64,000 nt of DNA from contig OY970201.1 of NCBI GenBank assembly GCA_963708245.1, positions 3,887,557 to 3,951,556 of the forward strand, written 5' to 3'. A program made the translations under genes and the position numbers. Each line of letters starts with the position of its first letter. The first letter of the stretch is position 1. Source of the stretch: an uncultured Pseudomonadota bacterium (GTDB lineage Bacteria > Pseudomonadota > Alphaproteobacteria > Acetobacterales > Acetobacteraceae). A model generated the notes under the pieces. That model saw only the letters and a program-made list of their open reading frames with translations, did not search any database and was not told where the DNA came from. Of this stretch, positions 9,182 through 57,285 are shown one piece after another.

Positions 9182-9183
9182 CA

Positions 9184-10170: not shown

Positions 10171-10215
10171 AACCATCCAGCATCCGGTTCATCCCAAAGC
10201 AAAGGAGTTAGTTCC

Positions 10216-39754: not shown

Positions 39755-39769
39755 TTCCTGCCGCCGGGG

Positions 39770-40558
39770 TCATTGGGTGTCGCCCGGCACCCTCGCCGCC
39801 TGCGCGACCGCGCAGGAATGGTCTTGGAGCTCTTCGGCCTCTCCGCGGTTGCCCGTGGCTAGGTCCGCTCGACCAGCAAGAAGATAAAAGCCAGGTTCGC
39901 CGCCGCTGAACGTGGCACCGACCGCGATAAGTGTCTCGTCGCCCATATCGCCTCGGGCACCCGGCAGCCGATCCGCCAGAAGTTGGAAGGGGGTGGCACC
40001 CGGCTGGGCCAGCGTCTCGACGCGCATGGCCTGGTAAGGATGACCGGACAGAGGGACTGGCAGCGGTGCCCAGGCGTCGCCGATCTCGGCGGCATGCTGG
40101 CGCAGCGCGTCGCGGACATCTACGCGTATGCAGTCGATGTGGATATGGAGTTGGTTCTGCGAGCGTCCGTGGATCGAGTTGATCGCCAGTGACAAGTCCT
40201 CCCGCGGCAAGGCGCGGTTCGCTGCGGCTTGCACCAGGTTGGTGGCGTCCCATGCGGGCTGCCAGTAATTCGGTGCGTTAGGCGCCAGGATTGCCGGATC
40301 CTCGATACCGGTGACGCGGGCGGTCGGGATCAGCAGGAACTGCGTGGCGCCCTTGATGTCCTTGAGGATGGCGTAGCCGCCTTCGCGATTGACGGCGGCG
40401 CAGGGAAGCGGGACTCCAAATTGCGCCTCGTGTGGGACACACTGCCCATGGGCGATCCGCCAGAGCACATTCGGGTCCGACGCTTGGAGTCTCGCCGGAC
40501 CAGCGACAAGGCATGTGGCCACCGCCGTCGCGGCAAGCCAATTGCGGCGTGTGAACAT
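39770..40558 (-). CDS. cdh: CDP-diacylglycerol diphosphatase (Cdh family)
   Basis: Start taken at MFTRRNWLAATAVATCLVAG (signal/anchor). LWRIAHGQCVPH, LAINSIHGRSQNQLHIHIDCIR, AEELQDHSC match E. coli Cdh blocks. Confidence 0.75.
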   Translation of the reverse strand: MFTRRNWLAATAVATCLVAGPARLQASDPNVLWRIAHGQCVPHEAQFGVPLPCAAVNREGGYAILKDIKGATQFLLIPTARVTGIEDPAILAPNAPNYWQPAWDATNLVQAAANRALPREDLSLAINSIHGRSQNQLHIHIDCIRVDVRDALRQHAAEIGDAWAPLPVPLSGHPYQAMRVETLAQPGATPFQLLADRLPGARGDMGDETLIAVGATFSGGEPGFYLLAGRADLATGNRGEAEELQDHSCAVAQAARVPGDTQ

Positions 40559-40632
40559 AGGCCGGACTCTACAACATCGGGCGGTGTTCGCGCGGTGTGG
40601 TAAATTCGTCACGGCGACGAGACGGAAAGGTG

Positions 40633-42477
40633 ATGCGACAGGACTTCGACGTGGTGGTTGTCGGCGGCGGGCATGCCGGTTGCGAGGCGGCAGCTGCCGC
40701 GGCGCGGATGGGTGCGCGCACGCTGCTACTGACACACCGGCTGGACACGATCGGGGAGATGTCCTGCAACCCCTCGATCGGTGGTATCGGCAAGGGTCAC
40801 TTGGTCCGCGAGATCGACGCGCTCGACGGGCTGATGGGCCGGGCGGCTGACATGGCCGGCATCCATTTCAAGCTGCTGAACCGCAGCCGAGGCCCCGCCG
40901 TGCGTGGCCCCCGTGCGCAGGCCGACCGCCGCCTCTACCGGCAGGCGGTCCGCCGTCTTCTGGCCGATACCGATGGGCTGGAACTGCACGCGGCGGCGGT
41001 GGAGGACCTCGACATCGGACCTGACGGGCGGTTGCAGGCAGTCGTCTGCGCCGATGGCCGCCGGATCTCCTGCGCGGCGGCGGTGCTGACCACCGGCACC
41101 TTCCTGCGCGGCATGATCCATATCGGCGAACGCCAAACTCCCGCCGGGCGTGTCGGGGAGGCACCTGCAGTCGGGCTGGCACACACGCTAGGTCGGCTTA
41201 ACTTGCCCCTGGGCCGCCTGAAGACCGGCACCCCTCCCCGGCTGGATCGCCGGACAATCGACTGGGATGGCCTCGCCCCCGATCCCGGCGATGCCGAGCC
41301 CGAGCCCTTCAGCTCTATGACCGTGCGGATCGACAACCCGCAGATCGCCTGCCGACTCACCGCGACCACGGCCGCCACACACGTGGTCATCCGCGCCAAT
41401 CTGCATCGCTCGGCGGTGTATGGTGGACAGATCGCCGGGCGCGGCCCGCGATATTGCCCCTCGATCGAAGACAAGGTGGTGCGGTTCGCCACACGCGAGC
41501 GGCACACGATCTTCCTGGAACCGGAGGGGCTGGATGATGACACCATCTACCCCAACGGCATCTCGACCAGCCTACCGGAGGAGGTCCAGCGCGAGTTGCT
41601 GTCCACGATCCCTGGGCTTGAGAGGGCACAGATGATCCGGCCCGGCTATGCGGTGGAATACGACTACGTTGACCCGCTGGCGTTGCGGCCGTCGTTGGAA
41701 GTCCGGGCTTTGCCGGGCCTGTTCCTGGCGGGGCAGATCAACGGGACCACTGGCTATGAAGAAGCCGCTGCCCAGGGGCTGATTGCCGGGGTCAACGCGG
41801 CCCGCCTCGCTGGCGGCGGTGCTCCGGTCGGGCTTGACCGCTCCGAGGCTTACATTGGCGTTCTGATCGATGACCTGACCACGACGGGCGTAAGCGAGCC
41901 GTATCGGATGTTCACCTCGCGCGCAGAGTTCCGACTGACCTTGCGGGCCGATAATGCGGATTTGCGCCTGACTCGGACGGGGATCGCCTGGGGCTGCGTG
42001 CGGGCGGAGCGGGCGGCGTCGTTCGCGCAATACGAAGCGGAGGTGACGGCGGCACTGGCGCGCGCTCAGCAGGACTGCACGACGGTACGCAGCCAGTCGG
42101 ACGGACGGCGCCGCACTGTCATGGAGCAGCTGGCGCTGGATGACATGACGCAACTTAGTTCGGCGTCGGTGTTCTCCTGGCTTGGTGAGCTTTCACCACG
42201 GGTCTTCAATCAGGTTCAGACGCAGGGACGGTACGCCGGGTACTTGCGCCGGCAGGACGCGGATATCCGCGGCTTCCGGCGACAGGAGTCGGTATCGCTC
42301 GACCAGGTGGCGTTCGAGGCGATCGGGGGCCTGTCCGCCGAATTGCGGGAGACGCTGATCCGGCATCGGCCAGCCTCTCTGGGCGCGGCCGCACGCCTGC
42401 AAGGGATGACGCCGGCCGCGCTGGCGGCGGTTGCCGCGCACGTTCGCCGTCAAGGCCGGGTCCGGGAGCCCGTGTGA
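40633..42477 (+). CDS. mnmG: tRNA uridine 5-carboxymethylaminomethyl modification enzyme MnmG (GidA)
   Basis: Start [20 protein letters not shown] (ATG 40633). [30 protein letters not shown]. Confidence 0.9.
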
Positions 42478-43079
42478 GCGATTGTTCGACATCGAAGCAG
42501 GTTTCACGTGAAACGCGGTTCGACTCCTTCATTGAGCTGCTGCTGCGATGGAATCGGCGGATCAACCTGATCTCGCGGGCGGATGAGGCGTTCATTCGCC
42601 AACGGCACATCGACAACTCGACCCAGCTCGCGGGCCTAATCCCGCCGAACGCGGAACGGGCCGTTGATCTCGGCTCCGGCGCGGGATTTCCGGGGCTGAT
42701 CCTAGCGGCGTTGACCAACATTCCGTTTGACCTGATCGAGGCCGATCAGCGCAAAGCCGCGTTCCTGAGTGAGGCAGGCCGACTTCTCAATGCGCCGATT
42801 CGGGTACACTGCACCCGCATCGAGGCGGTGCGCCTGCCTCCTGCGGGCCTGATCACCGCTCGCGCCCTGGCTCCGCTGCCGCATCTACTCACGCTGGCAG
42901 CGCCCCTGCTGGCGCCAGGGGGGATATGCCTGTTCCCCAAGGGCGGCGGTGTCGAATCCGAATTGACGCTGGCCGCCGCGCAGTGGCACATGCGCGTAGA
43001 TCGCATCCCGAGTCGCACCGGCCCAGGATCCATCATCCTCCGCATCACCGAGCTCCAGCGTGCCCCAACCCCTGCCTGA
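42474..43079 (+). CDS. rsmG: 16S rRNA (guanine527-N7)-methyltransferase RsmG (GidB)
   Basis: 201 aa. [24 protein letters not shown]. Confidence 0.85.
42501..42514. promoter_or_regulatory. parS: parS-like centromere site
   Basis: gGTTTCACGTGAAACg is a perfect 14-bp palindrome matching 14/16 of the TGTTNCACGTGAAACA consensus. It lies at the 5' end of rsmG, just upstream of parAB. Confidence 0.6.
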
Positions 43080-43899
43080 CGCCCCTACCCCGCCCGTCAG
43101 GCCATCGCGGATCCTCGCTGTAGCCAACCAGAAGGGCGGTGTCGGCAAAACCACCACCGCGGTCAACCTCGCCACTGCCCTGGCCGCCGCCGGCGAGTCC
43201 GTGCTGCTGATCGACCTCGACCCGCAGGGAAACGCCTCGACCGGCCTCGGCATCGCGCGCGAGGACCGCACGCTCGGCGCCTATTGCGTGCTGATCTTGC
43301 ACGCGCCGCTTGCAGACGCCGAACGGCCGAGCGGCATTCCCAATCTCAGCGTGATCCCGGCAGAGCCCGATCTGGTCGGTGCCGAGATCGAGCTGGTCGC
43401 GCTTGATCGCCGCGAATATCGTCTGCGAGATGCCCTCGCGGCGTACCGGAACGGAGAGGTACGGCACAGCTTCGTGCTGATCGACTGCCCGCCCAGCCTG
43501 GGCCTGCTGACGGTCAACGCGCTGGTTGCCGCCGACGCCGTCCTAGTGCCGTTACAATGCGAGTTCTATGCGCTGGAAGGGATCAGCGGGCTCATCCGCA
43601 CTATCGACGGCGTCCGCCGCGGCTTCAACCCCGCCCTCCGACTACAAGGAATTGTACTGACCATGTTCGACAAGCGGAACAGCCTGTCCGACCTCGTGGC
43701 CACTGATGCGCGCGGCTTCTTCGGGGGCGCCGTCTATGAGACCGTCATCCCCCGCAACATCCGCGTTACCGAGGCGCCCAGCCACGGCAAGCCGGTGTTG
43801 CTCTACGATTTCCGCTCCCCGGGCGCGCAGGCCTATATCCGCCTTGCCGGTGAGTTGCTGCGGCGCGAACGCCCCGCTCCGGCCGAGTCCACGTCATGA
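43060..43899 (+). CDS. parA: chromosome partitioning ATPase ParA
   Basis: ILAVANQKGGVGKTTTAVNLA deviant Walker A. 279 aa, GTG start. Confidence 0.9.
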   Translation: MPQPLPDAPTPPVRPSRILAVANQKGGVGKTTTAVNLATALAAAGESVLLIDLDPQGNASTGLGIAREDRTLGAYCVLILHAPLADAERPSGIPNLSVIPAEPDLVGAEIELVALDRREYRLRDALAAYRNGEVRHSFVLIDCPPSLGLLTVNALVAADAVLVPLQCEFYALEGISGLIRTIDGVRRGFNPALRLQGIVLTMFDKRNSLSDLVATDARGFFGGAVYETVIPRNIRVTEAPSHGKPVLLYDFRSPGAQAYIRLAGELLRRERPAPAESTS

Positions 43900-44750
43900 G
43901 CCTCCAGGCCAGCCCCCGGCTCGGTCGCGGCCTCGCCGCGCTGCTTGGCGACGCGGCCCTCCCCGCCGAGTTGGGTAGCGCCGGCATCCGCCAGATCCCG
44001 CTCGACCTGCTGGACCCGGGCCCGTTCCAGCCGCGCGGGGCAATGGACCAGACGGCGCTTGCCGAGCTTGCCGACTCCATCCGCGCCCGCGGCATCCTTC
44101 AGCCGCTGCTCGTGCGACCGCACCCCGCCGCCGAGGGCCGGTTCCAGATCATCGCCGGTGAGCGGCGATGGCGGGCCGCCGCGCTGGCCGGCCTGCACGA
44201 GGCGCCGGCATTGGTGCGACGGCTTGCCGACAACGAAGCGATGGCGGCCGCGCTGGTGGAAAACCTCCAGCGCCAGGACCTGAACCAGATTGAGGAGGCG
44301 GAAGGCTACAACCGCCTGCTCGAAGAATTTGGCATGCCGCTGGCGAGCTTGTCGGAGGCTGTGGGGAAGTCGCGCCCGCATGTCAGCAACGTGCTGCGGC
44401 TGCTGAACCTGCCGCGGCCGGTGCAGGACGCCGTGCGATCCGGGGCCATATCGGCCGGACATGCCCGCGCCTTGCTTGCTCATTCGGACCCAGAGGCCGC
44501 GCTGGCGGCGGTGCTGCTGCGCCGCTTGTCGGTGCGGCAGACCGAAGCGTTGGCGACGTCCAAACCGCGCCCCGAGCCTACGCCGACGGAGAAGGACCCG
44601 AATGTCGATGCTCTGGAGAGCGATCTCTCCTCAAGACTAGGGCTGCGAGTCGAGATATCGCCAGCTGGGACAGCCGGCACTGTCCGCATCCACTATCGGG
44701 ATCTGGATCAACTCGAATTTCTTGCCGCCCGGTTGCGGGCGGTCCACTGA
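43896..44750 (+). CDS. parB: chromosome partitioning protein ParB
   Basis: 284 aa. QPRG...L.ELADSIRARGILQPLLVR, IIAGERRWRAA, HTH SEAVGKSRPHVSNVLRLL. Confidence 0.9.
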   Translation: MSLQASPRLGRGLAALLGDAALPAELGSAGIRQIPLDLLDPGPFQPRGAMDQTALAELADSIRARGILQPLLVRPHPAAEGRFQIIAGERRWRAAALAGLHEAPALVRRLADNEAMAAALVENLQRQDLNQIEEAEGYNRLLEEFGMPLASLSEAVGKSRPHVSNVLRLLNLPRPVQDAVRSGAISAGHARALLAHSDPEAALAAVLLRRLSVRQTEALATSKPRPEPTPTEKDPNVDALESDLSSRLGLRVEISPAGTAGTVRIHYRDLDQLEFLAARLRAVH

Positions 44751-44798
44751 TAGACTGGGCGGTAGGCCGATACAAGTTTCGTTGGATACATCAGTAAT

Positions 44799-46460
44799 CC
44801 TAAATCCGGCAGTTGGGTCCGATCGTCGCCGGTCTGAAGTGACGACCCACAACCTGGGGTAATTGCTCAGGCCGGGCTCAGGCGAAGCGGTGGCTGCAGT
44901 TGCCGGCCATGCAAGAAGTAGCGGAGCGCTTCACTGAGGATGCGATACCAGCGTTGCAGCGGATCCAACTGCTCCGCACTTTTTCGCAGCCGGTCAAGAA
45001 AGCCGGCGATGCGCAGGTAAGCTTGCCTCGCCTTGTCGCGCGCGCCATGCGCGCTGCTGATCGTCAGCCTCACCTGGCCGGCGTGTTGGGTGCGCTGCGC
45101 GATCGCCGACAGCAGCAAGGGTCGGGTGGTGATCGCCTCCCGATGGTGCTCCGGATCAGCCAGCCGGACGAACAGGCTCCACCAGTTGTAGATCAGTGCA
45201 ACGATACCGGCCAGCAGCCGACACCGCGTGAGGTCCTGTGTCGTGAAACCGCCCCAACCCCATTGGTTCTTCAGCTCGTCAAAAACGTTCTCGCAATCCG
45301 CCCGATCGCGATACAACTGCCCCAGCGTCAGGATTTCATCGTCCATTGAGGTGACCAGCGCAGCGTAGTCCCACGCCTCCTGATCGGGGCCCACCTCGAC
45401 GAAGCCAAGTCGCCGCTGAGCCGGATCGCCATGATCGACGGCCGGCGGACCAGCCAGTTGGCGGCGCAGCAGAATGACTCTCCGCTGCCGGCTCCAGCCC
45501 TCCAGCCGCAGGCTCGTCTCCTTGCCCTGCCAGCCCTGGCCGGCATCCTTCCAGTCCGATGCCTGCATCGCCCGTTGCAGTGCCCGCGTGACGTTTTTCG
45601 TCATGCGCAGACGGAACAGATACGCCAGCTCCTCCCGCTCGGCCCGCGCCATCACCGGCTCGATGCCCCACGACTTGTCTCCGCGCAGCAGCCACGGCCG
45701 CTGCCCCGCTCCGAGATGATCCAGCAACTCCCACAAGCCGCCCGTCGCGTGTCTGACGTTGTGCTGATCGCCGGGCAATACCTCGACCCGTAGCACCAGC
45801 CGCAGGTTCGACAGCATGTAGCTGTGATAGCAGTGCGACGGCCGACCCGGCTTGTGCGGATTATAGCCCAGCTCGGCGCCTTCCTGGTGCCCATACAAAG
45901 GTTTGATGGTGGTATCGATGTCGAGCACCCACGGCTCGCCGAGCAGCGGAGCGGTGCAATAGTCCAGGTGGTTTTGCAGCCAGGCCGAGCCTTGCGCTTC
46001 GTCGATCTTCTCCAGCCCGCGGCGAACCGAGTCCTCGCTGACCACCTTGCGCATGCCGAGCAACGGCGGGTTCACCGGATCGCAGCGCAGCGCGGTCACA
46101 TGGGCATAGCGCCGGTGACCCGCCAGAACAGACAGCAGCACGGTGCCAAGCAGATCGCGTGTACGCGGTGCATTCGGGCTAGTGAACCGCAGCGGACAGT
46201 CGGCAACCCAATTGTCGAACAACCCGGCCTGCTTCAGGTAGTCGATGAAGAATGGCAGTTGGCCGAACGGCGTCACCGGTGCGGCGGCGTCCCACTCCAC
46301 GTGCACGCGCCCGGCGAAGGTATCGGCAATCGCCGAATGCGGCGCAACTTCCGGTTGCTCACCCGCGGGGTGAACCGCCAGACATCTCTGTTCTGTGCTC
46401 ATGCCGGCCAAATCTGCCGATTCAGCCGCGGCGCGCAATCACTCAACTGCCGGATTTAGG
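44799..46460 (-). mobile_element. complete IS1380-like (IS4-superfamily) insertion sequence, 1662 bp
   Basis: Terminal inverted repeats CCTAAATCCGGCAGTTG (44799-44815) and CAACTGCCGGATTTAGG (46444-46460), flanked by a 5-bp direct repeat GTAAT (44794-44798 and 46461-46465). A single transposase ORF fills the element. Confidence 0.8.
44867..46438 (-). CDS. DDE transposase of the IS1380-like element
   Basis: 523 aa. DIDTTIKPLYGHQEGAELGYNPHKPGRPSH, LLRGDKSWG. YREK signature in YRDRADCENVFDELK. Confidence 0.85.
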   Translation of the reverse strand: MRAAAESADLAGMSTEQRCLAVHPAGEQPEVAPHSAIADTFAGRVHVEWDAAAPVTPFGQLPFFIDYLKQAGLFDNWVADCPLRFTSPNAPRTRDLLGTVLLSVLAGHRRYAHVTALRCDPVNPPLLGMRKVVSEDSVRRGLEKIDEAQGSAWLQNHLDYCTAPLLGEPWVLDIDTTIKPLYGHQEGAELGYNPHKPGRPSHCYHSYMLSNLRLVLRVEVLPGDQHNVRHATGGLWELLDHLGAGQRPWLLRGDKSWGIEPVMARAEREELAYLFRLRMTKNVTRALQRAMQASDWKDAGQGWQGKETSLRLEGWSRQRRVILLRRQLAGPPAVDHGDPAQRRLGFVEVGPDQEAWDYAALVTSMDDEILTLGQLYRDRADCENVFDELKNQWGWGGFTTQDLTRCRLLAGIVALIYNWWSLFVRLADPEHHREAITTRPLLLSAIAQRTQHAGQVRLTISSAHGARDKARQAYLRIAGFLDRLRKSAEQLDPLQRWYRILSEALRYFLHGRQLQPPLRLSPA

Positions 46461-46483
46461 GTAATTGGTGCCGAGCCCTACAC

Positions 46484-46504
46484 CTCTCCCGCCCTGCGGG
46501 AGAG
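46484..46504. repeat. REP-like GC hairpin
   Basis: CTCTCCCG-ccctg-CGGGAGAG (8-bp stem), followed by GGGTGAGGGTG. It belongs to the CCTCCCGCAAGGGGAGG-type hairpin family also seen at 59689 and 61897. Confidence 0.4.
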
Positions 46505-46601
46505 TCGCCGCGTTGCCGCGCGGCGGGTGAGGGTGCCGGGCCGCGGCTGCGCCTTCGGCCCGAAATGACTTGTTGCCGCCCAGCAGCAGCGGGACCCCTA
46601 A

Positions 46602-47375
46602 CTAGGTGGCGTAATCCGGCTCCTCTTTATCAAGAACCCGGCGCCAGGCATCAAGGAACATGCGCGAATCATTGCGAGCCCCACGCGGGCCGGTGTAGCG
46701 CTGCCGATACTGATCCGGAATGTGACGCAGCTTCTTCCCGGTCATCTGCGCCGTCATCTGGTACATGCAGGTCCGCTCCGCGCTGTAAAGCTCGTCGAAG
46801 GCTTCCTCGACGGTGGGGCCTACCACGGTCACGCCATGCCCACCCATGACCATGATGGTCTTGTCGCCGAGCAGCGACGCAATTCTGTCGCCTTCCTCGT
46901 TGTCGTGCACCGGCTGACCGCCCCAGTTGTCCACAACCACCCGGTCATTGAGGAAAAGGTTGTTGCCATGTGCCAGCTCCAATTGCGGGTCCTCGAGCAT
47001 CGAAAGCGCCGTCAGGTATTGCGGGTGGACATGCAGCACGCAGGTGGCGCCAGGGTTCTTCAGGTGGATACGCGTGTGGATATGGAAGGCGACCTTCCGC
47101 AACTCGCCTTTGCCGCGCACCACCCGGCCATCGAGATCGCATACGATCAATGAAGTCGCGGTCAGTTCCTGGAACATGTAGCCGCGCGGGTTGATCAGGA
47201 ATAGTTGCGGCTCGCCCGGCCGACCAGGCGGCAGCATCAGCGAGTTGTGGTTGCCGATCTGCTCGTTCCAGCCAAGCCGGGCGGAGGCGCGGAACACGGC
47301 CGCCATATCGCAGCGCAAGCGCCATTCCTCTTGCTCGGCTTCCGTGTTGGTCAGGGCTTGGACGATCGCGGCCAT
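46602..47375 (-). CDS. class II aldolase/adducin family protein
   Basis: Start taken at MAAIVQALTNTEAEQEEW. HIHTRIH, VLHVHPQYLTALS, MVMGGHGVTVVGPTVEEAF. Confidence 0.8.
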   Translation of the reverse strand: MAAIVQALTNTEAEQEEWRLRCDMAAVFRASARLGWNEQIGNHNSLMLPPGRPGEPQLFLINPRGYMFQELTATSLIVCDLDGRVVRGKGELRKVAFHIHTRIHLKNPGATCVLHVHPQYLTALSMLEDPQLELAHGNNLFLNDRVVVDNWGGQPVHDNEEGDRIASLLGDKTIMVMGGHGVTVVGPTVEEAFDELYSAERTCMYQMTAQMTGKKLRHIPDQYRQRYTGPRGARNDSRMFLDAWRRVLDKEEPDYAT

Positions 47376-47622
47376 CTGTCTCTTCCACTTTCTGTGATAC
47401 GAGCCCGGGTGCGCAGCCATATAGACTGCGCTCCCGCTCTTTAGAGTTATACGGGTCCGAAGGCCGCGCGCCAAGGTTCGGCCACAGCGTTACGGCCGCC
47501 CGACGCCTCTTCAGCATCCTGCCGGACGACCGTACCACGCGCCAGACGGGCGACCGAATCCGGCAGGATCATCGCGCCGGGCTTGTGCGATTAGCGTCGC
47601 GAGGGGCAGCTACTTGCCGGAC

Positions 47623-48081
47623 TCATCCCGGTAAGCCCTCAGAGGCCAACGGAGGCAAGGTAGTCCCGGCTAGGTTCTGCGCGAGTCTCTGATGTCGCAC
47701 TTCCAGAGACAGGATCTCTATCCCATCCAAAAACGGTTGGACAAAGACTGTGCTTCGCTGACCCAAAGGAAATCCAAGTAAAGCAGCGATTTCCTTGGTC
47801 AATCTCAGTCGGCTATCCGAATAGAGAGAAAGCTCCCTGTAGCGGTCAGCGATAATGCTCAGTTGTTCAGCTGCGGCCAATTTGGGAAGTCCGCTGGCAA
47901 CACGTATGAGCTCGTCGATCATGGGTCGGACGACTAGGCCAGCGTAGATTCGGACCACACCGGCTTGGACAAGTTCGGCGGTGACCTTGGTTGTCTCTCG
48001 CTTCCACCATGAAAGGGTCCCCAGAATGGCTCTCCCGAGCTCGCCCAGTCCAGGAGCGAGATGGGCCGCGATCGTTACCAT
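47623..48081 (-). CDS. hypothetical protein, C-terminal AbrB/MraZ-like segment (possible regulator; start uncertain)
   Basis: 152-aa ORF in the low-GC island. SRLRLTKEIAALLGFPLGQRSTVFVQPFLDGIEILSLE resembles a swapped-hairpin repeat. The annotated start lies only 12 nt from the divergent ORF, so the internal Met (MIDELIRV) may be the real start. Confidence 0.35.
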   Translation of the reverse strand: MVTIAAHLAPGLGELGRAILGTLSWWKRETTKVTAELVQAGVVRIYAGLVVRPMIDELIRVASGLPKLAAAEQLSIIADRYRELSLYSDSRLRLTKEIAALLGFPLGQRSTVFVQPFLDGIEILSLEVRHQRLAQNLAGTTLPPLASEGLPG

Positions 48082-48093
48082 GGGAGGGTTATC

Positions 48094-48558
48094 ATGAGCG
48101 AGGTTACGGCGCTATCTGGAAACGGCCGCGACGGCGAAGGGCCAGACATTCAGACCTTTATGAAAGCGTTCGTCGCGGCCCTGATCGCTCGGGGGCAGAA
48201 CGCAGTGAGGCCTCGGGCACTCCCAGATCGCCGCGGCTTCCAGGAAGTAGTCGATCTGCTTGACAAAGAAGCGGAGCGGATCGAAGCCTCAGGTGAGGAC
48301 CACGAGGCGCTAAGGGCTATCGTAGCGGTCGCAAATCAGCTGCGGCCAAGCAACACAGGCGCGTACGACGGGTTCGAGACAGAGCTTCGGGCTCTGCAGC
48401 TAACGTTCACCCGCTGTCCCAATCTCTTCTACAAGGAGATCACCTTTACCGTGCCGGAGCCGTACGCCAGATCGGTGATCGCCGCCCTGCCGCCAAGATT
48501 CCGCCACTTGGCAGAGTACGCAGCAGAACGGTTCCTTGAGGCGCAGTCCAAAGGATAG
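48094..48558 (+). CDS. hypothetical protein (no recognisable family)
   Basis: ATG 48094 follows GGGAGGG. 154 aa. First gene of the island's + strand unit, 8 nt upstream of the HD gene. Confidence 0.4.
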   Translation: MSEVTALSGNGRDGEGPDIQTFMKAFVAALIARGQNAVRPRALPDRRGFQEVVDLLDKEAERIEASGEDHEALRAIVAVANQLRPSNTGAYDGFETELRALQLTFTRCPNLFYKEITFTVPEPYARSVIAALPPRFRHLAEYAAERFLEAQSKG

Positions 48559-49167
48559 AACTCCTGATGGAAGGTCTCCAGCGGCTTCGTGATAGCTGGC
48601 GCTCCTCCACCGAACTCTCCCGCTGGACCGAGCGGGCGTTTGACGCAGTCGGCTTCACCCAGCAATTCGTAGACACATGCGTTGCCGCCGCTACAAACCA
48701 AACCGCTCCTAGAAAGTCGACCGTCATTAAGGATTCCGTATGGGGAATGATAGAATTGGATGTGTCTTCAGTTCGGCTGCTAGATTCGCCGGTTCTTCAG
48801 CGTCTGCGCGGCGTTCGCCAGCTCGGTCTGTCGAGCATAACTTACCCGTCTGCCGAGCATAGCCGTTTCATTCACAGCCTCGGCATGTACTGCGTTGTTT
48901 CCAGATTCCTCGACGAAATCTCCCGACGAGCCGAGATGGATCCGGAAGAGGCCGGCGACTATGACTCAGGTATTCTGACTTTCGTAAAGCCTACCCAACT
49001 CAACAAGAGCCTATCGCGCGATCTACTCCATGCCTCGCTCCTGCACGACGTTGGGCATATGCCGTTCTCGCATGTGACAGAAAGGGTCCTGGATACAAAT
49101 GGAACACAGTTTCGCTGTGGAGGTGTTCTCGTAAGGGACTTGGTTGGCGAGATACACCGAAGGCTTA

Positions 49168-50132
49168 GTGTCCGTCCGGGAACAAATTGAGTCTTTAGAA
49201 TCGCTTAGCGGGTCACCCTTGAAGCCATTGAATCGCCTGTGATTTTCTCTCCCCCGAGCATCGATTCGGAGGACTGGATGTGGACCAAGGAGAACCGGAC
49301 GCGGTACGACCGCACCCGACTGCGCTATGAGAGCGATCTGACTGATGCCGAATGGGCCAGGTGGAACCATTGATCCCCCCGGCCAAGCCGGGCGGCAACA
49401 AGCGGAGCGTTGATATCCGCCAGGTGGTGAACGGCGTGATGTATGTGCTGAGCACCGGCTGCCAATGGCGGGCGATCCCCAAGGACCTGCCGCCGCGGAG
49501 CACAGTGCACGACTATCTGGAACGATGGACCTGGGACGGCACGCTGGAGCGACTGCATCACGCATTGTATGTGAAATGTCGTGAGCAGGCCTCGCGAGAG
49601 GCCAGCCCGACCGCCGCGGTGATTGATGCGCAGAGCGTGAAGAGCGCCGAAAAAGGGGGGCCTCGATCGATCCGCATGGGTATGATGCGGGGAAGAAGAT
49701 CAAGGGCAAGAAGCGGCACGTCCTGGTCGATACCCAGGGTTTGCTGCTACAGGCCATCGTGACGGCGGCGGACATCCAGGATCGCGATGGCGGCGCCATG
49801 CTGCTGGCGACGCTGTTCGGGATGTTTCCGTTCCTGCTGAAGCTTTATGCCGATGGCGGCTATCAGGGGCGGCGATTCCAGGAGGCGTTGAAGCGTGTCG
49901 TGTCGCAGGCCGAGGTGGAGATCGTCAAACGATCTGACCAGGCCAAGGGCTTTGTCGTGCTACCAAAGCGATGGGTGGTCGAACGCACGCTGGCGTGGCT
50001 CAACCGATGTCGTCGACTGGGTAAGGATTGGGAAAATCTCAATGTGAAGGCGCGTGCCTTTCTGTTGCTCGCTTCCATCCGTCTCATGGTCAGACGGCTA
50101 TGCAGGAACTAGCAATGTTCCCGGACAGACTC
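49168..50132 (+). mobile_element. IS5-family insertion sequence (IS1031/IS427-like), 965 bp
   Basis: Imperfect terminal inverted repeats GTGTCCGTCCGGGAACA (49168..) and TGTTCCCGGACAGACTC (..50132), flanked by a 3-bp duplication TTA (49165-49167 and 50133-50135). Confidence 0.8.
49278..50112 (+). CDS. IS5-family DDE transposase read in three frames (two -1 shifts)
   Basis: MWTKENRTRYDRTRLRYESDLTDAEWA / VEPLIPPAKPGGNKRSVDIRQVVNGVMYVLSTGCQWRAIPKDLPPRSTVHDY...SVKSAEK / SIDPHGYDAGKKIKGKKRHVLVDTQGLLL...ADGGYQG...VLPKRWVVERTLAWLNRCRRL. The second shift lies on GAAAAAGGGGGG (a slippery-looking run); the first does not lie on any such run. Confidence 0.75.
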
Positions 50133-51011
50133 TTAGGAAAGCCATCAGCTTCTCCGAATGTCTCTCTCTTATGATCGTCTTGTCGGATCGGTTCGAGAGG
50201 TTCTATAGCAGTTATGTATCGCCTGGTGACGCGAACGCAATTCTTCGGATCTCGTCGCTGATTGCAGGTCTGCCGCCAGATCCAGTGATGAGTGGCGTCG
50301 CTGACCTCATTTCTGCGACCGCGGTGGATGCGGACAAGGTCGATTATATCAACCGAGATTCCGTTGCGTGCGGAATTCCTGTTGGAATTGATGTCTCTCG
50401 CATCTTTCTTCGCAGCGGCTTTGTCCAGGTATCCAGGGAAAGACTACGGGATCTGAAAATTAAGAGCTCAGGCTCAGATCACGAGGTCCTCTTCGTTGTC
50501 AATGCCAGCGGTATGGATACCATTGATGAGCTGGCACAAGCGCGAGCGTCGTTGTACCAGAGGGTGTATCTACATGGCGTGACACGAACTGCGGAACGGC
50601 TACTCGGCCAATCTTTAGAGGCTAATGTCCATGCCGGCTCTGGCCGCGATGCCAGCCTCCTCGATGCCCTGGACCTGTGGGCCATGAGCGACACCAACTT
50701 GCTTGAGCGACTGCGTGCTTCCAAGGAGCTTCGGGTTAGGGTACCGGCGGAGGCGATTTTTTTGAGGCAGCTACCAAAGAAAGCAGCAGTCATTACTACT
50801 CAAGCAGTGGAGACCCATTTCCCTATGAGGGAGATATTCCGTGGCATGGAGGGTAGCGCGATCGACGAAATCACTAAGCAGATTACCGGTGTCGAGCTGG
50901 AGGCACTAACCGAGCGGAATCTGAAAGGCGCTCGAACTCCAGGAACTAGAGCAGGAAATTCGAGTAGAGATTGCTAAGGTCGCTGAGGCAGTCGGAAGGA
51001 TAAGCCCCCAC

Positions 51012-52409
51012 TTGGTCCCGGCCACCGGCCTGGAGATAGTTGTTGTCGTTGGTATGGCTTATCTCGAAACCCCAAAGAAGGACTGCATCATCCTGGAGAA
51101 CGGCGATCTTGTCCACTCTTCAGATGAGACAGCGGTAGATGAGCAAGTAGACGCCAGTGACATTTTTAAGTCAGCAGCCTACGTGATGGTGGACCCATCC
51201 TGGCGGCCCTTCGGAGCGATTGCCACTCGAGCGGTAATCTACAACCATGTTCGTGGTCCAGAACCGGTAGAGCTTTCGCTTCCGACCTTGCCCAGCACGG
51301 CACGGGATCAGATTCCGATTCGGCTGCTAGGACGGCCTATCCTAAGCGCTCGCCAGACGCTACGAAAGTCAGGCATAAACAGGAGGTCCATGCAGGCGGT
51401 CACAGCCGCAGTCGAGGAGGCGGGCTACTTCGACACACACCCGCTGCTGGTGGACTTAACGCCCGACCAAGCGCTGGACTGTGAAGCCGTAGCAACCATC
51501 CTGATGGATTTCGATGGACAAGGTTCGTGGCGCGTCAGCAAGACATCGGTTGCCGCATTCGTCGGCCAGTTTCCACCCGGGCTGAGGAGTGAGATGCTTG
51601 GACATCTCAAGAAGATCCAATTCCTCGGTCGAAGCCACATTTCACGCACCATACTTAAGACATTTGATTTGCATTGGCCCAGTACGGCGATTGACGTCGT
51701 CGCGCTTTCGCCCAGCAGCGGCCAAATGGTGCGGACTTGGCTAAAGCAGGAACTCGGCTCGACTGAGCGAGCAAGCCGCTGCGTTATCTGCAATGATCTG
51801 AGAGAATGCCTCAAAGCAGATAACCATAGCCGACCCCTGGTATTTGTCGATGACAACATAAATTCAGCGATCCAGGCACGGGCACAGTTTTTTGCTTGGG
51901 CAGGAATTGTACGCCATCAAAGGCCGCTAATCCTTCAGGGAGAAGACGGCATCTCTGACGTTAAACTCCCTAGCGAAGAGCTAGAATCGCTTAGAGCTCG
52001 CGAAATCTGGATAGTTACGTGCGCTGGATCCGTTCGGGCCGGTGAGGCACTTAGAGAGGCGCTGAACGACATCCTCTTCACAAGCTTCGGCGGCGTCCGA
52101 TATGATACCGAGATTGAGGGAGCGGACGGATTCTCTTCCGACCTGAAGAGCTTCCTCTGCACCGTCGGACGAGAGCTGATCGCTAGTACCAATCATGGTA
52201 CGAGTTTCAGCGACCTACCCAACGAAAAGCAGGAGGAGTGTGCTGGGAAAGAATTTGGCTATGGCAATGTTGGAAGTCTACTAGCTACAGCAATCAATGT
52301 GCCCACCTCAACCGTAACAGCAATTTGGAGCCCAGGAATCTTCGCCGCGCGAGGCTGGATGCCGCTTATGATCCGGCGGAACAAGCTGCGGCACTTGGTG
52401 GTCAGCTGA
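51012..52409 (+). CDS. uncharacterised protein with a PRTase-like loop (possibly the C-terminal continuation of the HD protein)
   Basis: 465-aa ORF (TTG start in the track). RPLVFVDDNINSAIQARAQF is reminiscent of a PRPP-binding loop. The frame is already open from 50925 and reads on sensibly from the HD ORF if one base is skipped. Confidence 0.45.
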   Translation: MVPATGLEIVVVVGMAYLETPKKDCIILENGDLVHSSDETAVDEQVDASDIFKSAAYVMVDPSWRPFGAIATRAVIYNHVRGPEPVELSLPTLPSTARDQIPIRLLGRPILSARQTLRKSGINRRSMQAVTAAVEEAGYFDTHPLLVDLTPDQALDCEAVATILMDFDGQGSWRVSKTSVAAFVGQFPPGLRSEMLGHLKKIQFLGRSHISRTILKTFDLHWPSTAIDVVALSPSSGQMVRTWLKQELGSTERASRCVICNDLRECLKADNHSRPLVFVDDNINSAIQARAQFFAWAGIVRHQRPLILQGEDGISDVKLPSEELESLRAREIWIVTCAGSVRAGEALREALNDILFTSFGGVRYDTEIEGADGFSSDLKSFLCTVGRELIASTNHGTSFSDLPNEKQEECAGKEFGYGNVGSLLATAINVPTSTVTAIWSPGIFAARGWMPLMIRRNKLRHLVVS

Positions 52410-52532: not shown

Positions 52533-53807
52533 TTACGTATTCATCGCGTCGAAGAAGTCGTTATTGGTCTTGCTGTATTTCAGCTTGTCCAGCAGGAACT
52601 CCATCGCATCCACCGTCCCCATCGGGTTCAGGATGCGGCGCAGCACCCACATCTTCGACAGCGTCCCCTTCTCGACCAGCAGCTCTTCCTTGCGCGTCCC
52701 CGACTTCGTGATGTCGATTGCCGGGAAGGTACGCTTGTCGGACAGCTTGCGGTCCAGAATGATTTCCGAGTTACCGGTGCCCTTGAACTCCTCGAAGATG
52801 ACCTCGTCCATCCGGCTGCCGGTATCGATCAGCGCGGTGGCGATAATGGTCAGCGACCCGCCTTCCTCGATGTTGCGGGCGGCGCCAAAGAAGCGCTTCG
52901 GCCGCTGCAGCGCGTTGGCATCGACACCGCCGGTCAGCACCTTCCCGGACGACGGCACCACGGTGTTATAGGCCCGCGCCAGCCGTGTGATGCTGTCGAG
53001 CAGGATCACCACGTCGCGTTTGTGCTCGACCAAGCGCTTGGCTTTCTCCAGCACCATCTCGGTGACCTGCACATGGCGGGTGGCCGGCTCGTCGAAGGTG
53101 GAGCTGATTACCTCGCCCTTCACCGTGCGCGCCATGTCGGTGACTTCTTCCGGGCGCTCGTCGATCAGCAGCACGATCAGGAACACTTCCGGATGATTGG
53201 CAGAGATCGCGGTGGCGATGTTCTGCAGCATGACCGTCTTGCCGGTGCGTGGCGGCGAGACGATCAACGCGCGCTGGCCCTTGCCGATCGGGGTGATCAG
53301 GTCGATCACCCGTGGTGTAAAGTCTTTGCCCGGCCCCTTGGCCACCGACTGAAAGTTTTCGACCTCCATCTTCAGCCGCTCGTCGGGATAGAGCGGGGTC
53401 AGGTTGTCGAAGTTGATGCGATGGCGGACCGCCTCGGGCGGCTCGAAATTGATCGTGTTGACCTTGAGCAGCGCGAAATACCGCTCCCCATCCTTGGGGG
53501 CGCGGATCTGGCCTTCGATCGAGTCGCCGGTACGCAGGCCGAAGCGGCGCACCTGGTTCGGGCTTACGTAGATGTCGTCGGGACCGGGAAGATAGTTGGC
53601 CTCGGGGCTGCGCAGGAACCCGAACCCGTCGGGCAGGATTTCCAGCGTGCCTTCGCCGCTGATCGCCTGGTCGTTCTCGGCCAGGTTCTTCAGGATCGCG
53701 AACATCATGTCCTGCTTGCGCAGCGACGATGCGTTCTCGATCTGCAGCAATTCGGCATAGCTCAGCAGGTCGGCGGGGGACTTTGCCTTGAGTTCGGCGA
53801 GATGCAT
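52533..53807 (-). CDS. rho: transcription termination factor Rho
   Basis: 424 aa. [20 protein letters not shown], Walker [36 protein letters not shown]. Confidence 0.95.
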
Positions 53808-54074
53808 GTGGGACGCCTCGGCGTTCTTCGTTGGAGCGACGGAGTAGGGACAAGCTGAACCCGGGGTGGCGGACCCGCTAATCGGATATACGCCAAGGAC
53901 CGCCAGGGCGGTCTGTTCCGTCTGATGGTGGATAGGGGCGGCAGCGGTTCATCGCTGCCGGAGGAGAGGTCAGCAGACTAGGCGAACCGCCGGACTCCGT
54001 CAACCCGTGAGGTGGCTCGCGGCAGCCCGGAATCAAGGGTGTAGGCCAGAACAAGCGTCCGAAAAGTGATCAAT
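53808..54074 (-). promoter_or_regulatory. long rho leader/promoter region
   Basis: 267 nt between hemJ and the rho ATG. The + strand is visibly G-rich, so the rho-sense transcript would be C-rich. This is compatible with the autoregulatory leaders known for rho. No specific site was identified. Confidence 0.3.
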
Positions 54075-54527
54075 TCAGAACGGTCGGACAATCACCATGA
54101 TGACGATCAGGGCCAAGAGCACGGTCGGGACCTCGTTGGCAACCCGGTAGAACCGCGCCGGACGGCGGTTGCGGTCGTACAGGAAGTCCTTCCGCCACCG
54201 AGCGTATCCCCCATGCAATCCCGACATGGCTAGGACTGAGGCCAGCTTCACGTGCCACCAGCCAGCCGCCCAGTCGAGCGCCCCAGGGGTCAGCACCAGC
54301 AGGACTCCGAAGACCCAGGTGGCGATCATCGCCGGGGTGGTGATTTGCTCTAGCAGCCGGCGCTCCATGACCTTGAACCGCTCACTTTCCGCCGAGCCCG
54401 GCTAAGTCTCGCAATGGTATACATAGAGCCGGGGCAGGTAGAACATACCGGCCATCCAGGCGACCATGGCGATGACGTGAAACGCCTTGGTCCACGGATA
54501 GAACAGCGCCAGTAGGTTGATCGTCAT
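54075..54527 (-). CDS. hemJ: protoporphyrinogen IX oxidase HemJ, interrupted by one in-frame TAG
   Basis: MTINLLALFYPWTKAFHVIAMVAWMAGMFYLPRLYVYHCET*PGSAESERFKVMERRLLEQITTPAMIATW...NEVPTVLLALIVIMVIVRPF. The stop at 54402-54404 is in the same frame as both halves. Confidence 0.75.
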
Positions 54528-55207
54528 GCCGGCCGCCCTAGTGCCGCACGGAAGAACCCTGGCACCTCGTACAGGCTGTGGATGAGGGTGGCGCCCGCAG
54601 CCGCCAGCGTAGCTCCATCGCCGTGTCGGGCAAGGCCGAGACAGGCCATCCCAGCGGCCACGGCGCCAATGACGCCAGGGACTGAGTCCTCGATCACCAG
54701 GCACTCACCCGGCAGCACCCCTTCCGCCGCCGCAGCCGCCAGGAACAGGTCCGGCGCCGGCTTGCCGCGCGCCACGTCGGTGAAGCTGTGCAGCCGCCCT
54801 ACGACTGCCTCGAGCAGTCCGCTGCGGCCGAACTTCGCCAGCATCTCCTCATGCGAGGAATTGGAGGCGACGCGCCACGGTAGCCCGAGCGCCGTTACGG
54901 CTTCCAGCGCCTCACGCGCGCCGGGGACCATCGGGGCGTCGGCCTGCAGCGCGGCGACGATCCACGCCTGCATGACTGACTGCCAGGCCACCGGGAGTGC
55001 CCGACCCAGCGCTGCCTCTATGAGCGGTACCATGGCCTTCAAATCGAAGCCGAGGAACCGAGTGCAACTCTCCTCGGGCGTCATCGGCCAGCCGAGATGG
55101 GTCAGTTCCTCGGCGACCACTCGGTTCACGACCGGCTCGCTATCGATCAGCACCCCGTCACAGTCGAAGATGACCAGACGCAGCGGGATCGCACCCCTAT
55201 CCGCCAT
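54524..55207 (-). CDS. HAD-superfamily hydrolase (subfamily IA)
   Basis: Start MADRGAIPLRLVIFDCDGVLIDSE (DxDG motif). SNSS, GKPAPD, EDSVPG. Its TGA overlaps the hemJ ATG. Confidence 0.75.
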   Translation of the reverse strand: MADRGAIPLRLVIFDCDGVLIDSEPVVNRVVAEELTHLGWPMTPEESCTRFLGFDLKAMVPLIEAALGRALPVAWQSVMQAWIVAALQADAPMVPGAREALEAVTALGLPWRVASNSSHEEMLAKFGRSGLLEAVVGRLHSFTDVARGKPAPDLFLAAAAAEGVLPGECLVIEDSVPGVIGAVAAGMACLGLARHGDGATLAAAGATLIHSLYEVPGFFRAALGRPA

Positions 55208-56255
55208 GGACGAGCGGACAGCCGGCGAACCTGACGGGACAGATCCGCGCACCTGCATGGCTCAGCAGGCCAGGACCGGCCGCTCGACTCGCCCGCACTA
55301 GACCAGCCAACGCACCGATGAAACCCGCATCAGCATTCTGTGTCGGTACCCGCGCATAGAAGGGCACACCCAGCCGCTCTGCGAAAGTGCGGTAGTCAAT
55401 GTCGAGTTCAACCAGCGTCTCGGAATGCTCAGAGACGAAGGCGATCGGGACCACAACAAGCGCCGCGCCGTCGCGGGCGGCTCGCTCGATCTCCTGCTCT
55501 GTGCTCGGCTCCAGCCATTTCTGAGGCGTGGCGCGTGACTGATAGCAAATCGCCCAGTCGATCCCTTCATCACCCCAAGCGCGGAGCACCGCTTCAACTG
55601 TCCGCTCCACCTGCCACTGATAAGGATCGCCGGCCTGCACGATCGCCTCCGGCAAACCATGTGCGGAGAACAACACGCGCAGCGGATGATCCGGGACGCG
55701 CTCGCGCACCTCTGTCCAGACTGCTCGCACTGTAGCTGCGAGTGCTCCGACAAAGAGCGGCATATCCGGATAACAACAGATCGTCGTCACCGGCACTGCC
55801 AGCCCGACCCGGGCGGCACTCTCACGCCACACCGTCAGAGAGCTAGCGGTAGTGGTAGTGGAGAATTGCGGGTAGAGCGGCAGCAGCACAACCTCATCCG
55901 GTCTCCACGCCTTCACCTCACGCACCGTCTCCAAGCTGAATGGATGCCAGTAGCGCATGGCAATGAAGCAGCGTGCATCAAACTCGGGCAAAGCTGCTTC
56001 TAGGGCTTCAGCCTGCGCACGAGTTAGTTCCAGGAGCGGCGACCGGCCACCAAGCTTCGCATAACTTTCAGTCGCGGGAGTCAGCCGTGCGCGAACGAGC
56101 GTCCGTGCCAGAAAAGGGCGGATGAAAAACGGAACACGCAGAATTGCCGGGTCGGTGAACAGGTTCAGCAGGAACGGCCTGATCAACTCCGGCCGATCAG
56201 GACCTCCCAGATTGAACAGCACGATCGCGACACGCGGCTTCGCGTTATGCGGCAC
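55197..56255 (-). CDS. hemH: ferrochelatase
   Basis: 352 aa. VAIVLFNLGGPD, LPLYPQFSTTT, FSAHGLP, AFVSEHSETL. Confidence 0.9.
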   Translation of the reverse strand: MPHNAKPRVAIVLFNLGGPDRPELIRPFLLNLFTDPAILRVPFFIRPFLARTLVRARLTPATESYAKLGGRSPLLELTRAQAEALEAALPEFDARCFIAMRYWHPFSLETVREVKAWRPDEVVLLPLYPQFSTTTTASSLTVWRESAARVGLAVPVTTICCYPDMPLFVGALAATVRAVWTEVRERVPDHPLRVLFSAHGLPEAIVQAGDPYQWQVERTVEAVLRAWGDEGIDWAICYQSRATPQKWLEPSTEQEIERAARDGAALVVVPIAFVSEHSETLVELDIDYRTFAERLGVPFYARVPTQNADAGFIGALAGLVRASRAAGPGLLSHAGARICPVRFAGCPLVHGG

Positions 56256-57285
56256 GTATTAGCCTCACCAACTCGGCGACGTGCTCCGGCGGCGTTTGCG
56301 GCACGATACCGTGGCCAAGATTGAAGATGAACGGAGTGCCCCGCATGGCGGATAACAAGCTGTGGACCTCCTCCCCCAGCGCCGCGCCGCCGGCGACGAG
56401 TGCCATCGGATCGAGATTACCTTGCAGTGCGATCGGCGGCGGCACCGAGGCACGAACCAACGCGGGATCCATCGCGGTATCCATAGCAACTGCATCGACG
56501 CCCGTAGCTGCCGCATACTCACCGATCAGGTGACCAGCCAGGCGAGGGAAACCGATCACCGGAACGCTCGGGAAGCGATGTTTCAATCGCCGCACGATCG
56601 CCTGCGTCGGCCGCACGACGTGCCGGCGGAACTGTAAGGGCGAAAGCAGGCCTGCCCAGCTATCGAACAGCATGACAACTTCGGCACCAGCCTCGATCTG
56701 GGCCTCCAGATAGCTCGCTGTCGCGTCCGCGAGCTGGTCTATCAGTTGCGCGAAAAGGCCCGGATCGCGATAGGTCATCGTCCGCGTAGCGGCGAAATCC
56801 TTGGACCCGCCTCCCTCCACCATGTAGCAGGCGACGGTGAACGGCCCGCCGGCGAACCCGATCAGCGCGGTTTCCGGCCACTCGGCCGCAAGGCGTTCGG
56901 CGACACGCCGGACCGTTTCCAGGATCGGCGCGATCGCCGCTAGAAGACGGGTTCGATCGAGCGCCTCCACCGCCGCTCCTTCTCGCAGGGGGGGCAGAGT
57001 TGGCCCTTCTTTCTCCCTGAACGCGACCTGGTATCCGAGCGCCCAGGGCACCATGAGGATGTCGCTGAACAGAATCGCCCCATCGAGGCCAAAGCGACGC
57101 ACCGGCTGCAAGGTCACCTCGGCGGCTAGGGAAGGTGTCGTGCAGAGCGCGATAAAGTCAGACGTCTGCGCGCGGATGGAACGGTATTCCGGCAGGTAGC
57201 GCCCGGCTTGGCGCATCAGCCAGATCGGTGGCGGCCATACTGCTTCGCCGCGCAGTACGCGCAGCAGAGCCTTGTGGGTTTCCAT
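56245..57285 (-). CDS. hemE: uroporphyrinogen decarboxylase
   Basis: 346 aa. PIWLMRQAGRYLPEYR, FSDILMVP, FNLGHGI. Confidence 0.9.
   Translation of the reverse strand: METHKALLRVLRGEAVWPPPIWLMRQAGRYLPEYRSIRAQTSDFIALCTTPSLAAEVTLQPVRRFGLDGAILFSDILMVPWALGYQVAFREKEGPTLPPLREGAAVEALDRTRLLAAIAPILETVRRVAERLAAEWPETALIGFAGGPFTVACYMVEGGGSKDFAATRTMTYRDPGLFAQLIDQLADATASYLEAQIEAGAEVVMLFDSWAGLLSPLQFRRHVVRPTQAIVRRLKHRFPSVPVIGFPRLAGHLIGEYAAATGVDAVAMDTAMDPALVRASVPPPIALQGNLDPMALVAGGAALGEEVHSLLSAMRGTPFIFNLGHGIVPQTPPEHVAELVRLIRAA

Follow-up and report, generated by a model that had tools for sequence, protein, structure and literature searches.

A low-G+C island at 47623-52409 of the 64,000-nt window analysed here, the whole stretch of contig OY970201.1 from an uncultured member of the Acetobacteraceae (assembly GCA_963708245.1), was acquired horizontally. 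With a probability that we put at about 0.55, it is a decayed copy of a two-gene conflict module of nucleotide-depleting type, composed of a fusion enzyme and a small partner. The operon begins with an open reading frame (ORF) of 154 amino acids (aa), the small partner, followed by a single large gene that joins an HD domain to a phosphoribosyltransferase (PRTase) domain of the PRTase-CE family. The catalytic motifs of the enzyme are conserved, and its gene has been inactivated by an insertion sequence (IS). The original prediction, drawn from the letters of this DNA without database searches, had described four ORFs in the island: a regulator-like gene, an ORF with no recognised motif, an HD phosphohydrolase and a 465-aa PRTase-like ORF. 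All the ORF coordinates, the 8-nt gap and the five motifs that it quoted were found. The conserved module nevertheless has two genes and not four, because the HD and PRTase parts belong to one fusion protein. The pair formed by the partner and the fusion enzyme is conserved across relatives, but the regulator accompanies it only in the closest ones.

An enzyme gene interrupted by an insertion sequence

Removal of the 965-bp IS, of one copy of the TTA that flanks it, and of one further base yields an uninterrupted protein of 957 aa. We searched for homologues with this reconstruction and obtained at least 135, of which 120 were listed. The great majority of those listed are 930-980 aa long, align over 97-100% of the query and combine HD, HD_assoc_2 and PRTase-CE domains, the closest of them being 56% identical to the reconstructed protein. 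An alignment of 24 sequences contains no gap at the IS site or at the frameshift site. Since full-length homologues align from end to end, a single gene has been broken into the HD ORF and the 465-aa ORF, and the same alignments rule out that these two represent separate, overlapping genes.

The enzyme gene is thereby preserved as three fragments, all on the forward strand. Fragment 1 (48567-49167) consists of codons 1-200 plus 1 nt and encodes the N-terminal region and the first HD motifs, with H103 at 48873-48875 and LLHDVGHMPFSH at 49038-49073. It is followed by the IS, also on the forward strand (49168-50132), which is bracketed by imperfect terminal inverted repeats (49164-49184 and 50116-50136, of which 49168-49184 and 50116-50132 fall inside the element) and by the TTA duplication (49165-49167 and 50133-50135). 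The transposase is encoded in two overlapping frames (49352-49762 and 49741-50112) that match the Pfam domains DUF4096 and DDE_Tnp_1/DDE_Tnp_1_2, and we assign the element to the IS5 family because of this two-frame arrangement and these domains. It is present as a single copy in the window. When the element is excised together with one of the TTA copies, the exact reading frame is recovered. The left junction is also crossed by L091 and L092, two short-read contigs obtained independently from other samples, which extend 25-26 nt past it into the IS; the insertion is therefore no assembly artefact. The earlier claim that an IS had knocked out the HD gene is thus upheld by the length of the element, its inverted repeats, the TTA duplication and the reads across the junction.

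The remainder of the HD domain, including VDADKVDY with D267 at 50333-50335, is encoded by fragment 2 (50136-50927), as is the HD_assoc_2 region. An A3G2 run (50924-50928) then breaks the frame, and a premature stop follows at 50975-50977. In the +1 frame, a stop at 50922-50924 is followed by KALELQELEQEIR..., which aligns without gaps to all homologues; from 50925 onwards this frame is uninterrupted, giving KALELQELEQEIRVEIAKVAE... as it runs into the 465-aa ORF. Fragment 3 (50925-52409) accordingly comprises that ORF plus 29 upstream codons, and encodes the PRTase-CE domain, preceded by a linker or middle alpha/beta region.

The 1-nt frameshift is present in two long assemblies that hardly differ from each other: between the window and a metagenome-derived contig (L090; ENA ERZ25039491 contig_10515), 12.5 kb align at 99.91% identity with 11 mismatches and without a gap. 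Another long assembly encodes the same Rho protein as the window. The frameshift was not found in short-read assemblies, the exact truncated products being present in long assemblies only, and the one short-read contig in this comparison begins downstream of the 50924-50928 site. The shift is a second lesion unless it is an assembly error, possibly a long-read indel, as it is located in a homopolymer run. Either way the gene is inactivated, because the IS alone suffices. The full-length enzyme cannot be made from the window copy, which is dead and decayed. Other enzyme copies in metagenomes are likewise split into two or three ORFs (1-2160 and 2179-2808 in L100; 191-1105 in L093), perhaps as additional pseudogenes, perhaps through sequencing errors.

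The two halves of the enzyme and the genes beside it

Concerning the HD half, a profile of the family matches proteins of known structure in the PDB, namely 2hek (5.6e-41), EF1143 (2o6i; 2e-35) and the SAMHD1 entries (1e-22 to 4e-27), and Pfam HD_assoc_2 is matched above its cut-off (7e-8). Across the 24 homologues H103, H160, R100, K268, Y271 and D275 are invariant, and D161, D267, H164 and H169 are kept in at least 90%; their correspondence to the residue numbering of SAMHD1 is our assumption. Every metal-ligand and substrate-site residue of the HD domain is intact in the window copy. The original prediction had called this protein SAMHD1/Dgt-like, and a SAMHD1-like HD enzyme is supported here. 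The PDB profile matches place it in the SAMHD1 family. The curated model for anti-phage dGTPases (NF041026), with a cut-off of 400 bits, gives a score of 10.5, which rules out an anti-phage dGTPase of Dgt type. TIGR01353 scores 22.7 bits against a cut-off of 152, and a PADLOC dGTPase match (E 5e-5) is confined to the region of the HD motifs. These profile matches and conserved residues identify the HD domain as a predicted SAMHD1-like triphosphohydrolase acting on (deoxy)nucleoside triphosphates, or (d)NTPs.

The PRTase-CE domain of the window copy lies at about 51555-52379 on the forward strand, with a segment resembling the loop that binds phosphoribosyl pyrophosphate (PRPP), LVFVDDNINSAIQ, at 51837-51875 and its two aspartates (DD) at 51849-51854. 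Pfam PRTase-CE (PF24390) matches residues 673-947 with 53.8 bits against a threshold of 27, over model positions 2-253 of 253. The PRTase-like character given to the 465-aa ORF by the original prediction is supported, but its status as a gene is not, as it is a fragment of the fusion enzyme. The same domain is present in about 107 of the 120 listed homologues according to precomputed Pfam annotation, and D772, D773, Q780 and Q784 are invariant among the 24 aligned homologues. Five PADLOC models for the PRTase of type III-A retrons (PRTase_III-A) match 15, 12, 12, 4 and 1 of these 24 members, with a best E of 2.6e-14 and an E of 1.1e-4 for the window copy. By such profile matches, the domain groups with the clade used as effectors by retrons of type III-A.

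An AlphaFold2 (AF2) model of the C-terminal 494 residues (mean confidence score, pLDDT, 87.9) agrees with this assignment: strand 305-311 terminates in the invariant DD, followed by a loop and helix 316-325, which is the arrangement of a PRPP loop. When the model was compared with the PDB by Foldseek, 14 of the top 15 matches were type-I PRTases (UPRT, HGPRT, XGPRT and OPRT), all of them weak (E 0.06-0.3, template-modelling (TM) score at most 0.48). By sequence, the PRTase half has no match among solved structures, and none of the NCBIfam PRTase models was matched. With the PRTase part as query, an exhaustive phmmer search retrieved 331 cluster representatives; nearly all of them are 870-1010 aa long and have the domain at their C-terminus. 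Among ten of the more distant representatives, eight have HD and/or HD_assoc_2 and two have PRTase-CE alone.

One family member departs from the common pattern in its HD half. In P0092, from Sphingomonas sp. PP-F2F-A104-K0414 (8001-10820 of locus L088), LLHGVGQMPFSR replaces LLHDVGHMPFSH and DAN replaces DAD. This protein has lost the HD catalytic residues, and has retained both the DD loop of the PRTase and the upstream partner. Because the DD loop outlived the HD residues, P0092 suggests that the PRTase half can be a functional output of its own.

The small partner (48094-48558, forward strand) is the first gene of the operon and ends 8 nt before the start of the enzyme. A homologue lies immediately 5' of the enzyme and on the same strand in all 17 distinct loci with upstream DNA, two of which are distant, and the gap between the two genes ranges from -35 to +70 nt with a single exception of 210 nt. 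Over 12 loci, the identity of the partner to the window copy follows that of the enzyme (r = 0.97), which indicates that the two are inherited as a unit and bears out the link between the 154-aa ORF and the enzyme made in the original prediction. Members of the partner family are about 140-155 aa long. A profile search retrieved 71 of them. Pfam recognises no domain in any, and all the named entries are annotated 'hypothetical' except one, which jgi calls a 'recombinational DNA repair ATPase RecF'. The window ORF itself matched nothing in Pfam, PADLOC, NCBIfam or PHROGs. Its AF2 model is all-helical (pLDDT 88.5), and Foldseek found no match to this fold, the best E being 0.55 in the PDB and 0.70 in BFVD (TM score at most 0.43). 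By analogy, the partner is presumed to be an inhibitor or a sensor of the enzyme.

Divergent from the operon is the 152-aa regulator-like ORF (47623-48081, reverse strand). Only the two closest loci have clear homologues in the same divergent position, 46% identical in L081 and 41% identical in L082, and L002 gave a weak match; in all, strong matches were obtained in 3 of the 17 loci and a weak one in a single locus. The ORF matched nothing in Pfam, PADLOC, NCBIfam or PHROGs, and its family had no match to Pfam or to PDB sequences even at E 10. The AbrB/MraZ repeat that had been read in its C-terminal half found no support from hidden Markov models, PDB sequences or profiles, and what weak signal exists is N-terminal: hhalign gives a probability of 22% over only 24 columns against the N-terminus of AbrB. 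Against MraZ the probability is 1%, which makes that assignment unlikely. The L081 homologue weakly matches a PHROG annotated 'antitoxin' (E 0.0036). We regard the 152-aa ORF as a lineage-specific accessory, with a possible DNA-binding motif of AbrB/MazE type at its N-terminus. Five residues of a GRLxIPxxL-type motif in that N-terminal region (47990-48040) are missing from the window protein and present in both homologues, and this loss is a candidate third lesion of the module.

The spacer between the two divergent start codons also differs. It measures 12 nt in the window (48082-48093) against about 230-300 nt in L081 (start positions of regulator and small gene 2381 and 2612) and in L082 (7206 and 7511). 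The sequence GGCGCTATCTGG occurs twice in L081, near the regulator start (2383-2394) and at the 5' end of the small gene (2626-2637), as well as at 7210-7221 in L082, and the window has a single copy at 48108-48119. It is a candidate operator. A deletion in the spacer of the window copy is possible and would be a further sign of decay.

Composition, position and relatives of the island

The original prediction had claimed a drop in G+C content (GC) at this block from three lines counted by hand, all of which we could reproduce (0.517, 0.450 and 0.683). The computed sliding profile confirms it: windows of 500 nt range from 0.52 to 0.59 across about 47.5-52.5 kb against 0.61-0.74 in the flanks, to the exception of three windows at 0.61-0.62, one over the 154-aa ORF (48000-48499) and two over the IS (49250-49999). 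Without the IS, the island has a GC of 0.555 versus 0.633 for the whole window, and the 4.8-kb segment of lowest GC in the entire 64 kb starts at 47601. GC at third codon positions, also confirmatory, is 0.575-0.69 for the island genes versus 0.78-0.87 for parB, the aldolase gene and rho. These three measures establish that the anomaly exists and that it corresponds to the block described in the original prediction.

To the left of the island is a gene for a class II aldolase (NF005068, 3e-67) and to its right is rho, as had been proposed, and gene order and strands agree that the usual neighbourhood of rho and mnmE is broken. The left flank carries on the forward strand mnmE, mnmG, rsmG, parA and parB (38465-44750), then an IS of the IS1380 family and the aldolase gene, and the right flank carries on the reverse strand rho, hemJ, a HAD hydrolase gene, hemH and hemE (52533-57285). 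The adjacency of rho and mnmE is lost because the block from mnmE to parB is on the opposite strand to rho. The IS between parB and the aldolase gene (44751-46610, reverse strand; transposase at 44867-46438) is unrelated to the one in the enzyme gene; it matches NCBIfam NF033539 (3.5e-41) and Pfam DDE_Tnp_1_4, and is present once in the window. Two IS elements and the island thus occupy the junction where the origin-proximal cluster is inverted relative to rho, which hints at an IS-mediated rearrangement. At the borders of the island we looked for a tRNA, flanking direct repeats, an integrase and Rfam matches and found none, the Rfam scan of 44-54.5 kb giving zero matches.

Relatives of the enzyme are scattered. 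They occur in Alphaproteobacteria (Bradyrhizobium, Mesorhizobium, Rhizobium, Microvirga, Roseibium and Sphingomonas), and beyond them in Prosthecobacter (Verrucomicrobia), Rhodoferax (Betaproteobacteria) and a metagenome-assembled genome of Myxococcales. A scan of genome contigs picked up generic HD motifs, mostly in ordinary SAMHD1-like genes, and contributed only two useful loci (L001 and L002); the metagenome loci were found by a scan with an alignment of the PRTase C-terminus. The most crowded of the related neighbourhoods is L083 (1-17549), a dense defence or mobile island with two integrases, a type IIG restriction-modification enzyme (7.5e-38), a PDC-S28 helicase (3.6e-262), a Lit-like Peptidase_U49 and a DUF3631 protein. 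Integrases are also found in L084 (Bradyrhizobium iriomotense), with a DUF626_VIII-like protein and RepB/ParB, and in L086, with an imuB/dnaE2 cassette. The neighbours are Mrr_cat and a large helicase in L088 and a type II restriction enzyme in L089, and L099 holds the VirD4, VirB4 and VirB11 genes of a conjugative element with a type IV secretion system (T4SS). The defence-type context proposed for the island is therefore found only in part among relatives: they are often beside integrases, restriction genes or a T4SS, but several loci (L081, L082, L094 and L104) have metabolic or housekeeping neighbours.

Proposed function and comparison with known systems

We propose that, in relatives where the gene is intact, the large protein would be a conflict effector that attacks the nucleotide pool. 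Its HD domain would convert deoxynucleoside triphosphates (dNTPs) into deoxynucleosides and triphosphate, and the PRTase-CE domain would bind and consume PRPP, or attack the glycosidic bonds of nucleotides, such that nucleotide resynthesis would be blocked. The translationally coupled partner may keep the enzyme inactive or sense a trigger, as antitoxins and the Clover protein CloB do, and phage infection or loss of the mobile element would then release the enzyme and arrest replication. Such a module would be costly, and this would explain its inactivation in the present genome. Precedents exist: the PRTase of Retron-Eco11 depletes PRPP upon activation (PMC12746101), the toxicity of ShosT requires PRPP binding and the DD motif (PMC11961720, PMC12961424), and Clover uses a dNTPase as a defence effector together with a partner that regulates it (PMC12265719). 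More tentatively, the pair may constitute a widely dispersed two-gene system of anti-phage or abortive-infection type, in which a dual blockade of dNTPs and PRPP would be gated by a new protein inhibitor or sensor.

Several points weigh against the proposal of a nucleotide-depleting conflict module. Enzyme activities, toxicity and phage defence are inferred from sequence for every member of the family, and the role of the partner is a guess from gene order. The structural match of the PRTase half is weak (E at least 0.06), and this half has no sequence match to ShosT or to a solved PRTase. Defence genes are neighbours in some loci only, those of L081, L082, L094 and L104 being ordinary. Lastly, full-length copies are absent from the phage and plasmid (72,556) collections, which gave generic HD matches only.

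PRTase-like domains bind ligands in the repressors PurR and PyrR, and the PRTase-CE domain could similarly be an allosteric sensor of PRPP or a nucleotide that switches the HD dNTPase, the HD domain alone doing the damage. Such a division of labour would fit the strong allostery of SAMHD1-type enzymes and the control of Clover CloA by nucleotide ligands (PMC12265719). Conserved loops of DD/SxSG type are moreover needed for PRPP binding as for catalysis, and an acceptor substrate has not been found even for ShosT (PMC11961720). We consider a purely sensory PRTase rather unlikely, however, given that the same PRTase clade is the sole effector in type III-A retrons (PMC12746101), and that P0092 has kept its DD loop after the loss of its HD residues.

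The order of the genes, with a small gene first and a large enzyme second, overlapping or close, is also that of a toxin-antitoxin-like addiction module, which would stabilise integrative or conjugative elements, with the partner as labile antitoxin and the AbrB/MazE-like gene as autoregulator. Integrases or a T4SS element do adjoin several loci, the regulator homologue weakly matches the 'antitoxin' PHROG, and ShosTA itself has been described as a toxin-antitoxin system (PMC11961720). Yet none of the 72,556 plasmids holds a full-length copy, and many copies have no recognisable mobile-element genes nearby, which makes a role confined to addiction distinctly unlikely; it overlaps in part with the conflict module that we favour, toxin-antitoxin and abortive-infection roles being compatible. 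Least probable of all, and in our view quite improbable, is an ordinary enzyme of nucleotide homeostasis or salvage with an accessory subunit and no conflict role, lost here as dispensable. SAMHD1-like HD enzymes and PRTases do have housekeeping relatives, and some loci have metabolic or housekeeping neighbours. Against this stand the foreign composition and patchy cross-phylum distribution of the module, its variable neighbourhoods, often with integrases or restriction enzymes, and the grouping of the PRTase with retron effector profiles when no NCBIfam PRTase model was matched. A deoxynucleoside is, besides, no substrate for a PRTase, and the two reactions therefore form no salvage path.

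How far is a nucleotide-depleting pair of this kind already known? The class to which its C-terminal domain belongs is reportedly a predicted nucleotide-targeting immune effector: Nicastro, Burroughs, Iyer and Aravind are said to have defined Calcineurin-CE, HD-CE and PRTase-CE in 2023 as predicted nucleotide-degrading immune effectors. The 'CE' in the name of the Pfam family (PF24390) stands for conflict effector. The window domain falls in this family above threshold, and members of its subtype are almost all fusions to HD; the window copy differs from them as a pseudogene. As the original prediction had anticipated, the island matches no named defence system as a system, PADLOC giving matches at the level of domains only. 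Our literature search, which excluded Nicastro et al. 2023, returned no experimental study and no named system for the HD-PRTase fusion, for the orphan partner or for the pair.

Individual components do recall characterised systems. With type III-A retrons the enzyme shares the PRTase clade, and the retron effector depletes PRPP and leads to abortive infection (PMC12746101). Here, in contrast, the PRTase is fused to HD and paired with a small helical protein, and not with a reverse transcriptase (RT) and multicopy single-stranded DNA; an RT ORF is absent from the island and from the genes listed for nine related loci, and Rfam gave no non-coding RNA at 44-54.5 kb. ShosTA is also a two-gene unit, and ShosT has a hydrolase N-terminal to a PRTase with an essential DD (PMC11961720, PMC12961424). 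That hydrolase is a HAD-like pyrophosphatase, whereas the one studied here is of HD/SAMHD1 type, and ShosA is DprA-like, whereas the upstream partner is helical. Neither ShosT nor ShosA models of PADLOC matched any of the 24 members or the small ORFs.

Clover and the single-gene anti-phage dGTPases likewise employ a dNTP triphosphohydrolase of the HD superfamily as a nucleotide-depleting effector, and in Clover a dedicated partner restrains CloA (PMC12265719). CloB is however a nucleotidyltransferase of Pol-beta type, unlike the 154-aa all-helical partner with no Pfam domain and no fold match. A 2026 survey of dGTPase fusions reports SAM, NLR, TIR, CARD, death and SIR2 domains, and no PRTase (PMC13519002). 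SAMHD1, EF1143 and the Aquifex protein 2hek have a homologous HD lobe in which the H...HD...D ligands and the RF.HSLG and DK.DY..RD motifs are conserved, but the present family is set apart from them by a C-terminal extension of about 480 aa with the PRTase, by its obligatory upstream partner and by a mobile, patchy distribution.

For this genome, the comparison corrects a mis-split gene model and leaves, near the replication-origin gene cluster, an IS-disrupted relic of what would have been a costly accessory module, now lost. More generally, nucleotide depletion is an immune strategy common to bacteria and, through SAMHD1, to animals, and the restraint of such enzymes is actively studied. 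The family described here would unite in one protein the chemistries of a SAMHD1-type dNTPase and of a PRTase of retron/ShosT type, and its constant pairing with a protein of orphan fold makes it a compact and testable system for a possible dual-target depletion and for a putative new control protein.

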